From Escherichia coli (lineage in GTDB: Bacteria; Pseudomonadota; Gammaproteobacteria; Enterobacterales; Enterobacteriaceae): DNA of 64,000 nucleotides. Where the stretch lies: NCBI RefSeq assembly GCF_003790525.1, contig NZ_CP033635.1; one strand, given 5' to 3'. A program made the position numbers. Positions 1 through 6,000 of this stretch are shown here, piece by piece; position 1 is the first letter of the stretch, and each line of letters opens with the position of its first letter.

Positions 1-3000
1 TCTTTCATGTTTTCACTGATTATGTGGATGATGATTATTTAAAGTCATTTAATGAAACAGCAAAACAATTTAATACCTCAATTATTGTATATTTAATTGA
101 CCCAAAATACTTTGCTGATCTGCCGACGTCACAGTTTTGGTCGTACGCGACATACTTCAGGGTATTGTCCTTTGAATATCTGAGTGAAAGTATTTCCACA
201 CTGCTGTATCTGGATGCCGATGTCGTTTGTAAAGGAAGTCTGAAACCTCTCACAAAAATTATATTTAAAGATGAGTTTGCTGCGGTTATTCCTGACAATG
301 ATAGTACTCAGGCGGCATGTGCAAAACGTCTTAACATTCCCGAAATGAATGGACGTTATTTCAATGCAGGCGTTATCTATGTCAATCTTAAAAAATGGCA
401 TGAAGCAAATTTGACACCGTATTTACTCACGCTTTTACGAGGGGAAACTAAATATGGCTCTCTTAAATATTTAGATCAGGATGCGTTGAATATCGCATTT
501 AATATGAATAATATCTACCTCGCGAAGGATTTTGATACTATTTATACCCTGAAAAACGAACTTCATGATCGTAGTCATCGAAAGTATCAGCAAACCATTA
601 CCGATAAAACAGTATTGATTCACTATACAGGGATAACTAAACCATGGCATAGCTGGGCTGGATATCCGTCTGCATCATACTTTAATATCGCGCGTGAACA
701 ATCTCCCTGGAAGAAATATCCTCTTAAAGAGGCGCGGACTGTTGCAGAAATGCAGAAACAATATAAGCATCTGTTTGCCCATGGTGAGTATATAAAAGGC
801 ATAACTTCATTAATTAAGTACAAGCTTAAGAAATAAATTACTCTTATGATTACAAGTATACGTTACCGCGGCTTCTCATTTTATTACAAAAATAATGATA
901 ATAAATATAAAGAAATCTTTGATGAAATACTGGCCTATAATTTCAAAACAGTAAAAGTATTACGTAATATTGATGATACCAAAGTATCGTTGATTGATAC
1001 GAAATATGGTCGCTATGTTTTTAAAGTCTTTGCTCCGAAAACGAAAAGGAATGAACGTTTTTTAAAATCTTTTGTAAAAGGTGACTACTATCAGAATTTG
1101 ATCGTTGAAACCGATCGTGTCAGAAGTGCAGGTCTTACTTTTCCTAATGATTTTTATTTTCTGGCTGAGCGTAAAATTTTCAATTATGCCAGTGTTTTTA
1201 TCATGCTTATCGAGTATGTCGAGGGCGTAGAGCTCAATGATATGCCGATTATTCCAGAAGATGTTAAAGCAGAAATTAAGGCTTCAATGGAAAAATTGCA
1301 TGCCTTAAATATGCTATCGGGCGACCCACACCGGGGTAACTTTATCGTTAGTAAAGATGGTGTCAGGATAATTGACCTATCCGGTAAAAGCTGTACGGCA
1401 GAGCGTAAAGCTCGTGATCGTCTGGCCATGGAACGTCACCTGGGTATTGCCAACGAAATAAAAGATTATGGCTACTATTCAGTAATCTACAGAACCAAAC
1501 TACGCAAATTTATTAAAAAATTAAAAGGCAAAGCGTAAACCACACAGTCAAAACGGAACCAACATGGATTTATTAGCTGAGAGTATTACTGAAGTCGCTG
1601 TCTCTGGGGAAATTGCTAACACCGATCGTGTGTTAAATATCGCTTACGGTATTGACCGCAACTTTTTATTTGGTGCAGCAGTATCTATGCAATCAGTTGT
1701 TATGCATAACCCGGATCTTGCGGTTAAGTTTCATCTCTTTACTGACTACATTGATGAAGACTATCTACAACGTGTTAATGCTTTTACCAGCAAAAATGCT
1801 AACGTTGAAGTAAGAATTTATAAAGTATCCAGTGCCTTTATTGATATCTTCCCCAGCCTGAAACAGTGGTCTTATGCAACATTCTTCCGTTTAGTTGCGT
1901 TCCAGTATCTGAGTGAAACTATTGAAAATCTGTTATATATCGATGCTGATGTCATCTGTAAAGGCTCATTAGCTGGATTGCTTGATATTAATTTTGATGG
2001 CGATAAATTCGCAGCTGTTATTAAAGATGTGCCTTTTATGCAGGAAAAACCAGCGAAGCGTCTGGCTATAGAGGGGCTTCCAGGGAATTATTTCAACGCC
2101 GGTGTAGTATATCTGCAGCTTGAAGCGTGGGCGAAAAATGATTTTATGAATAAAGCCATTGCTATGCTGGCAAGTGACCCGCAGCACACGAAGTATAAAT
2201 GCCTTGATCAGGATATTTTAAATATTCTGTTCTTTGGTCATTGTATTTTTATTAGCGGCGATTATGATTGCTTTTATGGCATTGACTATGAGTTAAAAAA
2301 TAAAAGCGATGAAGATTATAAAAAGACCATTACCGATGATACTAAGCTGATTCATTATGTTGGCGTAACGAAGCCCTGGAACGACTGGACGAATTATCCC
2401 TGCCAGAAGTATTTTAATGAGGCTTATCAGGCTTCTTGCTGGAATGATGTGGCGTTTATTCCAGCCACGAATGAAAAGCAGTATCAAGTGAAATACCAAC
2501 ATGCAAAGAAAAATGGTGATACGTTTAACGCTTTTATTTACTTCATTAAATTCAAATTAAATAAGTATAAAAGAAAACTATTTAGGCAATAATAAAAATT
2601 ATGGATGTCTAAGTTACAATAATAATTAAGGATGAGTCCTATCATATTTTATTAGTTCAGGCAAGAGAACACGATGAGCAATGATTACCCTTTAGTATCC
2701 ATAATAATACCGACGTATAATTCATCTGATTACATTACTGAAACTCTAACGAAATTAGAAAAACAAACTTACCCAAATTTTGAAATTGTTATTGTTAATG
2801 ATGGTTCTAAAGATAACACATCAAATGTTTTGAGAGAGTATGGGTTAACCCACTCTCGATTAATTATTCTCAATAAAGAAAATGGCGGTGTTTCGTCTGC
2901 CAGGAATACAGGTATCCGCAAGGCGCAAGGACAGTTTATATGTTTTATGGATGATGATGATGAGATAGATCCTAACTATCTGCTGAAGATGTATTCCAGA

Positions 3001-6000
3001 CAACATGAGACGGGAGGGGATGCGATTTATTGTGGGCTTTATGGACATCATATAAAAAATGGTGTTACTTACTCACCTATAAATACAGATTTTAATGAAG
3101 GGTCTTTACTTTTCGATTTTTTTTATAAAAAGGTCAGATTCCATATAGGGTGCTTGTTTATAAGAAAACAACTCCTGGAAGATAATAATCTTTTTTTTGA
3201 TGAAGATTTACGACTAGGAGAAGATCTGGATTTTATCTATCGACTGCTAATTACATGCGATATGTATGCGGTTCCATATTATATGTATAAGCATAACTAT
3301 AGAGAAAATTCCCTAATGAACTCATGTAGAACCATCACTCATTATCGACATGAGTCATTTGCGCACGAAAGAATCTACTCTTCTGTGATGCAGTTATACA
3401 AAGGTAACCGGAAAGAAGAAATTCATACATTATTGAGTAAAAATAGAACTTATCATAAAACTCGTTATTTATGGAATGTTCTACTTAATGGCGATTTTGA
3501 ATTATTAAATCAATTAGTTGAAAGCAATGAAAAAGAATTGAAAGATTGTAATCTTCTTGGCAAGAGAGATAAGAGGCGAGCAAAAATATTAGCATCAAAA
3601 AACTATATTCTCTGGAGGATGGTAAGACTGGTAAATAGAAAAAAGAATAAACGTTAGGTCTTGCATTAAATAACCCATCCTCGTAGCATAGGTTGAAATT
3701 ATATGTCGTTTTGTTGGAAAGAAATTAACTCTGGTGTCAAGTCTTTAATTCTCATATTATGTATGTTGTCTTTAATGACTTTGTCTTTGTGGGATGATGT
3801 TGCAACAAAGTTTCTTCATGCAGCTGGAATTATATCTACATTATATTTTCTAGCGACAGCAAAAAAAACAATAACTAATAATCCTACTTTGTTAATTTTT
3901 ATCTCATTATGTCTTTTGGGTATCGTTAATATCATCTGGTATTCACATTATAAAGTTTCAGGCTCGGTTTATACCAATGCATATCGTGGCCCAATGGAAA
4001 CTGGAAAAATTGCCTTGTGTAGTGCTTTTATTTTCTTAGTTCTTTTTGCTAAAGATGAGATGAGAACAAAAATAAAATTTGGGAAACTAATTCTGTTCGC
4101 ATCCCTGGCAACGCAGTTACTTTTTTTTGCGCATGCCATGTGGCAACATTTCTATTTAAACGTAGACCGTGTTGCATTATCAGCTTCCCACGCTACAACA
4201 GCAGGCTACATCATCCTTTTCCCTTCTTTACTGGCATCAATTCTCATTTTAAAATGCGACTTTAGACATAAAACAACATTATATACAATTAACTTCATGC
4301 TTAGCTTATGTGCTGTCATAGTAACTGAAACGCGTGCAGCCATATTAGTGTTTCCATTCTTTGCGTTAATATTAATCGTAATGGATAGTTATATTAATAA
4401 GCGAATTAATTATAAGTTATATTGTTTTATTGCGATTGCATTATTAGCAGGTGTGTTTTCTTTTAAAGATACATTGCTTATGAGAATGAATGACTTAAAT
4501 AACGATTTAGTTAATTATTCGCATGATAACACCAGAACTTCAGTCGGTGCCCGTCTGGCAATGTATGAAGTTGGTTTAAAAACATATTCTCCAATAGGAC
4601 AATCACTGGAAAAACGCGCGGAAAAAATACATGAACTAGAAGAGAAAGAGCCTAGATTAAGTGGCGCTTTACCCTTTGTAGATTCTCATTTGCATAACGA
4701 TCTCATAGATACGTTATCAACGCGTGGTATTCCTGGAGTAGTATTAACAATTTTAGCCTTTTCAGCAATATTCATATATGCCTTAAGAACTGCTAAAGAA
4801 CCTTATATTTTAATCTTGCTTTTTTCACTACTGGTAGTAGGCCTAAGTGATGTAATACTCTTTTCTAAACCGGTTCCGACTGCTGTGTTTGTCACCATAA
4901 TATTGCTTTGTGCTTATTTTAAAGCACAATCGGACCAATGTTTATTAGATAAGTAATGAATATGTGAAATAAAATCAGCAAGGAAGCTGATTTTATTTCA
5001 AAATTATCTATTAAAGAGTTGTAATTTAAATCATGGCAGCGTTTTCTTCAATGAACCGCTTAACAGCATTTGCTGTCAATTGAGACAACTCATTCCCCGG
5101 AGCCCTACAAACCATCTGATTCTTCCCATACCCACCAATTAGTCCCGGATCGGTAGGTCCATAAACCGTGATATTGGGTCTATCCAGTGCCGCCGTTAAA
5201 TGGCTTAACCCCGTATCCACCGACACTACAAATTTAGCCCCAGCCAGTACGCGGGCAACGCCTTCCAGACTCATCTTCGGCAATACTTCAACATAAGCAA
5301 ATCCTTCCGCCAGTCGTTTCGCCCGTTCTTCCTCATGCGGCGCGCCCCACGGAAGTTTAATCCGTATTCCTGAATCAGCCAGTAAACCAATCAATTCTCG
5401 CCAGTGTTCTTCCGGCCAGTGTTTATCATCTCGGGTTGTTGCATGAAGAAATACGGCATATTCGCCAGCATCTGTAGGCAGGTTCGTCAGGAAATGCTGT
5501 GCGATAGCATAATCGCCCTGGGTTTGTGGTTTGCTATAGCCCAGACTTTTGGCAAACAGTTCGCGGGTGCGTTCTACGGCGTGCTGCTGTTTTGCAATAT
5601 GATGTTTACGATTGTAAAACAGGCTGGCTAACGGTTCGCGAGCGGTTTGCCAGTCCATTCCATGCTTTACGCCATGCGCCAGACGCGTCACCAGCGCTGC
5701 GCTTTTTACCAGCCCCTGAGCGTCGATAACTGCGTCATAATTCTCTGCTTGTAGCGTTTCACGAAACGCTTTGCGTTCAGCTTTTATGGGGGCCGAGAAC
5801 CAGGCTTTACGCCAGCGACGTATTGCCACAGGAATAACTCGCTCAACGGCGGCGTGCCAGGAAGGAATCTGTGTGAACCCTTCTTCCACCACCCAGTCAA
5901 ACTTAATCCCTGGGATTGCCTGCTGGGCATCAGTGAGTGCGGGCAGCGTATGGAGAACATCGCCCATCGACGATGTTTTAACGATCAGAACCCGCATCCG

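Follow-up and report, generated by a model that had tools for sequence, protein, structure and literature searches.

The prototype of the R1 LPS core of E. coli is F470. Loci of other core types share parts of its plan. In the R4 locus of strain KN12-1 (R4 by in silico typing), waaQGPO-waaT-waaY-waaW are accompanied by a co-directional waaL that is convergent with waaC, as in the locus described below. This locus also carries a GT25 gene, waaX, whose product is assigned a beta-1,3 linkage in PMC3526765 versus a beta-1,4 linkage in PMC13293308; the locus studied here is unaffected by this discrepancy. The R3 locus (O157:H7) has low-GC outer-core genes in a GT8-waaY-GT8 order, with two GT8 genes in total (waaI and waaJ), and a GT4-like waaD gene, annotated as an N-acetylglucosaminyltransferase, after waaJ. 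The K-12 and R2 loci are built on the same hldD-waaF-waaC and waaQGP frame, with waaY and GT8 paralogues; they contain waaS (in R2, a GT8 gene at that position), waaB, waaO, waaJ(R), waaY and waaZ, together with waaU in K-12 and waaK in R2, and in both of them waaL belongs to the hldD operon.

We analysed the corresponding region in a 64,000-nt stretch of E. coli DNA from contig NZ_CP033635.1 (the window). The window is essentially DNA of strain SMS-3-5: identity is 100% for the first 14 kb, and the remaining 54 kb show 2 mismatches and 1 gap. ORF calling revealed five co-directional plus-strand genes in positions 1-4956, waaT-waaY-waaW-waaV-waaL, convergent with waaC-waaF-hldD (Table 1). We interpret this stretch, with a probability of about 0.97, as the distal portion of a waaQ operon from an E. 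coli with an R1 core and, at the same level of confidence and from sequence comparison, the locus as an R1-type LPS outer-core block. The waaT gene is truncated by the window start, its first 160 nt lying upstream; its frame is open from nt 3, while the original ORF call (24..836) began at an internal GTG. In SMS-3-5 (locus L001, 8841-9836) full-length waaT encodes 331 aa.

Table 1. Features of the outer-core locus and its conserved neighbours (window coordinates)
Feature	Coordinates	Strand	Basis or remark
waaT, 3' 277 codons; predicted GT8 UDP-galactose:(glucosyl)LPS alpha-1,2-galactosyltransferase	1..836	+	Pfam GT8+GT8C
waaY, predicted LPS core heptose(II) kinase	846..1538	+	Pfam WaaY, NCBIfam RfaY equivalog
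waaW, predicted second GT8 enzyme	1564..2592	+	Pfam GT8+GT8C, RefSeq product name
R1-specific cassette	2512..5097		no DNA homology to the otherwise ~98-99% identical R4 locus
waaV, predicted GT2 beta-1,3-glucosyltransferase, R1-diagnostic gene	2674..3657	+	Pfam GT2, 134 bits, above the gathering score
waaL, predicted R1-type O-antigen ligase	3703..4956	+	Pfam Wzy_C
Hairpin, perfect 15-bp stem and 6-nt loop	4965..5000		between convergent waaL and waaC, terminator-like match
waaC (heptosyltransferase I)	5026..5997	-	conserved context gene
waaF	6001..7047	-	ORF calling
hldD	7057..7989	-	ORF calling

The R1 locus of NCTC122 (E. coli C) contains the same genes in the same order, orientation and spacing, with 97.7% DNA identity over 9 kb, zero gaps, and protein identities of 96.2-99.1%. 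The hairpin and the C-terminal tails of WaaW and WaaC are also the same. We then applied published core-typing primers (taken from PMC13293308) in silico. The R1 pair gives a product of exactly 842 bp (2433..3274), with exact matches at 2433-2452 (+) and 3256-3274 (-), the latter being the R1-F site in waaV. No site for the R2, R3, R4 or K-12 primers was found in the window with up to 3 mismatches allowed. The same primers correctly typed the comparator loci: R4 (L002, from KN12-1), K-12 (L004 and L008), R3 (L005 and L006), and R2 (L007). A preliminary description of this DNA had recognized an R1 rather than a K-12 gene order; colinearity with NCTC122, the protein identities and the 842-bp amplicon all agree with it, and so does the protein search, in which the best matches of WaaT, WaaY, WaaW, WaaV and WaaL are R1 proteins, with identities to the K-12, R2 and R3 loci of at most 54%, or no match.

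By itself, a GT8-kinase-GT8 order would fit R1, R4 and R3 (waaI-waaY-waaJ) alike. R1 is singled out by the combination of the GT2 gene with a waaL that is co-directional with the waaQ operon and convergent on waaC; in the K-12, R2 and R3 loci waaL lies on the hldD-waaFC strand. WaaV is 96.9% identical to the NCTC122 gene product encoded at the same position between waaW and waaL. Its exact sequence is named 'Beta1,3-glucosyltransferase' in UniRef, its GT2 DDD motif is intact, and the protein matches solved GT2 structures. No WaaV counterpart was detected in the R4, K-12, R2 and R3 loci (by tblastn in the case of R4 locus L002). A GT25 gene (waaX) at 2674-3657, named at the outset as evidence that would speak against R1, is not what occupies this position: the gene there is GT2, and none of the five proteins contains a GT25 domain. 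None of our results speaks against R1.

WaaT and WaaW are clear paralogues, as the preliminary description had it (42% identity over 279 aa, E = 6e-79). They score 206 and 242 bits, respectively, with Pfam PF01501 (GT8; cutoff 24.3), and their GT8 motifs are intact, with DAD at residues 125/127 and HY(T/V)G(I/V)TKPW at 261/264 (in WaaT, DAD and HYTGITKPW). WaaT is 98.5% identical to its NCTC122 counterpart and 99.7% to that of R4; for WaaW the values are 99.1% and 93.6%, and comparison of C-terminal tails shows its last ~31 aa to be R1-specific. The exact WaaW protein bears the source name 'UDP-galactose--(galactosyl) LPS alpha1,2-galactosyltransferase'. With an NCBIfam model for 3-alpha-galactosyltransferase (WaaO/WaaI-type) the two proteins score 240 and 271 bits, far under the cutoff of 461, and that name was therefore rejected. 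No NCBIfam equivalog scored above cutoff for WaaT, WaaW, WaaV or WaaL; thus, the specificities that we tentatively assign to the two GT8 proteins rest on near-identity to R1 strains and not on a curated model. WaaY is matched over its full length (1-229 of 229-232 model positions) by PF06176 (429.6 bits, cutoff 20.3) and the NF007684 equivalog (400.7 bits, cutoff 248), and is 98.7% identical to the R1 and R4 copies and 52-54% identical to those of K-12, R2 and R3.

WaaL is predicted to be a polytopic O-antigen ligase of the Wzy_C family. It has multiple hydrophobic stretches, scores 66.6 bits with PF04932 (Wzy_C; cutoff 31.7), and carries the source name 'O-antigen ligase' for the exact protein. 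The periplasmic-loop motif HNDLIDTLSTRGIPG at residue 331 follows the pattern H[NSQ]x9Gxx[GTY], a definition reportedly going back to Schild et al. 2005. That the ligase is type-specific had been stated before and is seen in the identities: 96.2% to NCTC122, 35% to R4 and 30% to K-12, with no match in the R2 and R3 loci at E<=1e-3.

The hairpin downstream of waaL has an MFE of -20.5 kcal/mol (z = -5.8; 0/200 shuffles as good) and was found in R1 loci L001 and L011, while it is missing from the R4, K-12, R2 and R3 loci. Its T-tails are weak; it is probably a bidirectional transcript-end element, a function that we infer. Promoter-like sites are not enriched (26 versus 22.7 +/- 4.0 in shuffles), and we claim no internal promoter.

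The block was originally delimited as an AT-rich region at 1-4956. Its contrast with waaC-waaF-hldD is real: GC is 0.349 in 1-4956 versus 0.523 in the next 5.4 kb (5026-10434), and GC3 is 0.27-0.36 across the five block genes versus 0.48-0.62 across waaC, waaF, hldD, kbl and tdh. The proposed limits, however, are too narrow. The low-GC tract reaches ~5097, within the waaC 3' end, and on the other side extends beyond the window start across waaO (GC 0.38); waaQ, waaG and waaP have intermediate values of 0.47-0.48. Both the overall contrast (0.35 versus 0.52 in the flanks, GC3 down to 0.27) and the sharp change of composition within the waaC 3' end would suit a recently acquired foreign island as opposed to a resident, anciently polymorphic locus. 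We consider such an origin very unlikely: the block occupies the same chromosomal site, between waaP/waaO and waaC, in every E. coli examined; it has no annotated integrase, IS, tRNA or direct repeats; and an Rfam search of positions 1-9000 gave no match. The data are better explained by acquisition long ago and later allelic exchange of cassettes than by a recent insertion. Elsewhere in the window, at ~36-48 kb, there is a bigger AT-rich stretch whose GC falls as low as 0.29.

A locus that merely resembles R1 and is in fact hybrid, decayed or novel, for instance with a pseudogene or a rearrangement, has precedents in the R1/R4 hybrid of ECOR46 and in an IS1-mediated deletion of waaY-waaL (locus L003; IS1-deleted strain 98224). 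We find this highly improbable here, given five full-length ORFs, gapless colinearity with NCTC122 over the 9 kb compared, unbroken catalytic motifs throughout the block (GT8 DxD and HxxGxxKPW, GT2 DDD, WaaL His), and more than 20 genomes with a 100% identical block among the matches listed.

An R4-type locus, which has waaT-waaY-waaW and a co-directional waaL in common with R1, is a reading favoured by the first half of the block: window positions 1-2511 are 99.1% identical to the typed R4 locus of KN12-1, in keeping with the high R4 identities of WaaT, WaaY and WaaW given above. The blastn alignment, however, stops at 2511 and resumes only at 5098 (97.6% identity from there onward), and sliding identity to R4 falls from 0.98-1.0 outside these limits to 0.36-0.56 inside. 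The 2.6-kb cassette so delimited holds the waaW 3' end, waaV, waaL, the R1-specific hairpin and the waaC 3' end. At 2674-3657 it has the GT2 gene, whereas R4 has its 257-aa GT25 gene there, and the R4 locus also differs in WaaL, in the last ~31 aa of WaaW and in the last ~19 aa of WaaC. With no R4-F primer site even at 3 mismatches, a GT2 assignment and an 842-bp R1 amplicon, the R4 type is barely credible and we reject it. The cassette is the sole difference between R1 and R4. A K-12, R2 or R3 locus is a negligible prospect, the last sharing the order GT8-waaY-GT8-transferase-ligase: protein identities are 37-54%, the GT2 protein and WaaL have no match in R3 and R2 at E<=1e-3, typing primer sites for all three are lacking, R3 has waaD followed by an opposite-strand waaL in the hldD operon where the window has waaL on the plus strand, and none of waaS, waaB, waaZ, waaU and waaK occurs in the window or in the full SMS-3-5 locus.

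Within the R1 assignment, the backbone around the cassette may resemble that of R4 strain KN12-1 more closely than that of NCTC122. Positions 1-2511 are 99.1% identical to KN12-1 versus ~98.4% to NCTC122, and the WaaA and WaaQ proteins have the same accessions in SMS-3-5 and KN12-1. The idea that core types switch by lateral transfer is a long-standing one. We put at even odds that this lineage has switched between R1 and R4 fairly recently, the cassette having been exchanged by homologous replacement; if true, this would only refine known biology. In phylogroup F, R4 and R1 are reported to account for about half each. The last ~19 codons of waaC (5026-~5085) vary by core type when C-terminal tails are compared: WaaC is 95-97% identical to the proteins of all core types over its first 312-316 aa, and 99.1% identical to that of NCTC122 over the full 323 aa. 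Crossovers in the waaW and waaC 3' ends would give both proteins type-linked C-terminal tails.

The full block is present in 1831 of 5426 complete genomes (33.7%), and another ~696 (12.8%) carry only positions 1-2511; published core-type frequencies are 35.4% for R1 and 12.3% for R4. Since a third of complete genomes have the block, the earlier wording that the outer core type is strain-defining was too strong.

The roles of R1 enzymes are described in 10.1101/2022.09.06.506728 and PMC3526765, both citing Heinrichs et al. 1998. If the window proteins act as those of the published R1 strains, from which sugar specificities, order of action and ligation site are inherited, WaaG and WaaO, encoded just upstream of the window, would extend the inner core with GlcI and GlcII. 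WaaT, a retaining GT8 enzyme, would then add alpha-1,2-Gal to GlcII, and its paralogue WaaW would attach another alpha-1,2-Gal to that galactose. The inverting GT2 enzyme WaaV would place a beta-1,3-Glc side branch on GlcII only once WaaW has acted, and WaaY would phosphorylate inner-core HepII. At the periplasmic face of the inner membrane, polytopic WaaL would transfer undecaprenyl-PP-linked O antigen to the completed core, the presumed R1 ligation site being the beta-Glc added by WaaV. The core structure made by this strain would follow from this scheme. It may also account for waaV and waaL travelling together, because WaaV would build the acceptor that WaaL uses. Core type sets the O antigen attachment site and affects the use of phage receptors as well as recognition by anti-core antibodies, which makes the R1 assignment useful for annotation.

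Two enzymes with solved structures are distant homologues of the window proteins, with common fold and catalytic residues but different acceptors. The alignment of WaaW with the GT8 enzyme LgtC (1G9R/1GA8; E = 2.6e-17) takes in the DxD, DQD and His-x-x-G-x-x-KPW regions, and residues 146-365 of WaaL match WaaL of Cupriavidus metallidurans (7TPG; E = 5.7e-13) in an alignment that spans the periplasmic-loop Arg and His motifs. Closer to home, the R1 finding is already known, and both the observation and the interpretation of the preliminary description hold; the genes, their order, the low GC and the R1/R4 difference have been known since the late 1990s, genomes are now routinely typed, and our analysis adds nothing new to this picture. 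Proteins of Shigella sonnei (R1) fall into the same 90% clusters as the window proteins, and from the R1 locus of NCTC122 the window differs only allelically, mostly in waaV and waaL (~94-97% identity in sliding windows at positions 3001-4000).

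Five co-directional ORFs were called on the + strand of window 1–4956, and their Pfam matches, all exceeding gathering scores, bear out the order GT8, kinase, GT8, GT2 and ligase given in the preliminary description. The first, waaT, is cut at its 5′-end by the window start: as called it begins at an internal GTG at position 24, and its true frame is open from nt 3. In the matching genome, SMS-3-5, full-length waaT (8841–9836 of its waa locus, L001) encodes 331 aa and starts 160 nt upstream of the window. WaaY is also confirmed by the NCBIfam RfaY equivalog (400.7 bits versus a cutoff of 248); no above-cutoff NCBIfam model was found for WaaT, WaaW, WaaV or WaaL. 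RefSeq names the proteins, in order, GT8 protein, rfaY, UDP-galactose--(galactosyl) LPS alpha1,2-galactosyltransferase, GT2 protein and O-antigen ligase family protein; source names of the exact GT2 sequence include "Beta1,3-glucosyltransferase". The 90% clusters that hold the block proteins also take in Shigella sonnei proteins.

Genes of the outer-core block and downstream neighbours, with protein identities to comparator loci
Gene	Position	Strand	Product or model	R1 (NCTC122)	R4 (KN12-1)	K-12, R2, R3
waaT	open from nt 3, 5′-end cut by window start	+	GT8 + GT8C (Pfam)	98.5%	99.7%	43–45%
waaY	846–1538	+	WaaY (Pfam); RfaY equivalog (NCBIfam)	98.7%	98.7%	52–54%
waaW	1564–2592	+	GT8 + GT8C (Pfam)	99.1%	93.6%	37–41%
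waaV	2674–3657	+	GT2 (Pfam)	96.9%	no match	no match
waaL	3703–4956	+	Wzy_C, O-antigen ligase (Pfam)	96.2%	35.4%	K-12 30%; R2, R3 none
waaC	5026–5997	convergent with block	downstream
waaF	6001–7047	convergent with block	downstream
hldD	7057–7989	convergent with block	downstream; then kbl, tdh

For in silico core typing we applied the nine primers of Trofimova et al. 2025 (PMC13293308). The R1 pair has exact sites at 2433–2452 (+) and 3256–3274 (−), giving 842 bp, the published size of the R1 product (PMC13293308), while no site for the R2, R3, R4 or K-12 primers was found in the window, even allowing 3 mismatches. The comparator loci were typed with the same primers as R4 (L002), K-12 (L004, L008), R3 (L005, L006) and R2 (L007). 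Our R1 reference, NCTC122 (E. coli C), which has been PCR-typed as R1 (PMC13293308), is colinear with the window across 9,000 bp at 97.7% identity with zero gaps, and its block proteins are 96.2–99.1% identical. Against SMS-3-5 (NC_010498.1), the first 14 kb are identical and the remaining 54 kb contain 2 mismatches and one gap.

The R1 assignment stands because neither finding that would speak against it was made: matches to K-12, R2 and R3 enzymes are at most 54% identical or missing, and the gene at 2674–3657 is a GT2, not a GT25 (waaX). In the R4 locus, a GT25 gene of 257 aa stands at this place. Gene order, put forward earlier as a mark of R1, would not decide the core type alone, since GT8-waaY-GT8 occurs in R3 too. 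The deciding features are the GT2 gene and the orientation of waaL: it closes the waaQ operon, converging on waaC, in R1 and R4 loci, whereas it shares a strand with hldD-waaF-waaC in K-12, R2 and R3 loci. Further downstream, the hldD-kbl gap (7990–8202) is only 213 bp long and lacks htrL/yibB, which adjoins hldD in K-12 MG1655 and R3 loci and is absent from the examined R1, R4, R2 and K-12-type L008 loci. Just past tdh, outside the waa cluster proper, lies the core-modifying waaH (UDP-glucuronate:LPS(HepIII) glycosyltransferase, 10673–11707).

The two GT8 genes are indeed paralogues (WaaT versus WaaW: 42% identity, 279 aa, E = 6e-79). A third paralogue, WaaO, has its gene just upstream of the window and shares 38% identity with WaaT and 33% with WaaW. 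The DAD, DQD and HYxGxTKPW motifs are present in all three, and the alignment of WaaW to LgtC, a GT8 enzyme of solved structure, runs through these regions. In WaaV the DDD motif is retained, and many GT2 enzymes of known structure match this protein. The WaaL match to the solved ligase 7TPG spans the periplasmic loop (E = 5.7e-13), and HNDLIDTLSTRGIPG in WaaL fits H[NSQ]x9Gxx[GTY], the O-antigen ligase motif. Judged by sequence, all five genes look functional.

Their presumed roles are those described in 10.1101/2022.09.06.506728 and PMC3526765, each citing Heinrichs et al. 1998. By that account, WaaG and WaaO would first place GlcI and GlcII; WaaT and then WaaW would each add one alpha-1,2 galactose; and WaaV would add the beta-1,3-Glc branch on GlcII only once WaaW has acted. 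WaaY would phosphorylate HepII, and WaaL would ligate O-antigen in the periplasm, the R1 attachment point being the beta-Glc from WaaV. This last role would explain why waaV and waaL vary together.

The block is AT-richer than waaC-waaF-hldD, as first described: GC is 0.349 in 1–4956 versus 0.523 in 5026–10434, and GC3 is 0.27–0.36 across the five genes versus 0.48–0.62 in waaC, waaF, hldD, kbl and tdh. Seen over the whole locus, low GC extends from waaO (0.38), a gene just upstream of the window, to a point within the waaC 3′-end; waaQ, waaG and waaP are intermediate (0.47–0.48). The block is not the sole AT-rich stretch of the window. A bigger island (~36–48 kb; GC 0.29–0.40 at ~36,200–48,200) lies between yibH and yibF, a site occupied by the rhsA region in K-12. 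It contains two HTH regulator genes (36239–37765, − strand), a PefC/AfrB-type chaperone-usher fimbrial operon (38510–44201) and an S6-family (SPATE-like) autotransporter peptidase (44367–48182). Elsewhere, a YadA-like trimeric autotransporter gene (23503–28152, − strand; 1549 aa) has internal repeats offset by ~230–250 bp and 79–85% identical; the NCTC122 allele is shorter by 270 nt.

Counting the block as carried at ≥80% of its length and >95% identity, we found it in 1831 of 5426 complete E. coli genomes (33.7%), and ~696 further genomes (12.8%) carry only ~1–2511; published frequencies are 35.4% for R1 and 12.3% for R4. Identity to waaY falls into two bands, 95–100% in 2,527 records and 60–80% in 2,876. 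What the block marks is a widespread, polymorphic core type rather than a strain, and to describe core type as strain-defining is an overstatement. Of the 2537 matches to window 1–5000, three fall on plasmid-classed records, and in one genome the match occurs at three places; misassembly or ECOR46-like duplication may account for these. In E. coli strain 98224 (L003 7722–8583), waaT is truncated by an IS1 element and everything from its 3′-end through waaL is missing, so from its sequence this strain should have a truncated core without O-antigen ligase. In a 4.83 Mb record labelled 'DH5alpha', the R1 block is present at 98.7% identity (NZ_CP026085.1 97648–102645). DH5alpha is a K-12 derivative and a K-12 core is therefore expected; the label, or else the strain itself, is probably wrong.

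Homology to R4 locus DNA stops at window 2511 and is back at 5098, identity in between being 0.36–0.56. This cassette comprises the last ~31 waaW codons, waaV, waaL, an intergenic hairpin and the last ~19 waaC codons, and its WaaL upholds the proposed type specificity of the ligase. Core types differ in the C-terminal tail of WaaC (~19 aa, 5026–5097; total length 318–330 aa), and R1 differs from R4 in that of WaaW (~31 aa, 2500–2592); the variable region thus extends into two otherwise conserved genes. The window has both tails and the hairpin in common with NCTC122; all other core types differ in them. Lying between convergent waaL and waaC, the hairpin (4965–5000) has a stem of 15 perfectly paired bp (MFE −20.5 kcal/mol, z = −5.8); it was found in 2/2 R1 loci checked and is absent from the R4, K-12, R2 and R3 loci. 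Its T-tails are weak, and it may be a bidirectional terminator.

The left flank of the cassette is 99.1% identical to the R4 strain versus ~98.4% to NCTC122, which hints at cassette exchange within one lineage; phylogroup F is reported to be 51% R4 and 46% R1. Such exchange would refine known biology rather than add something new, and the block itself is the textbook, already known R1 outer-core gene set.
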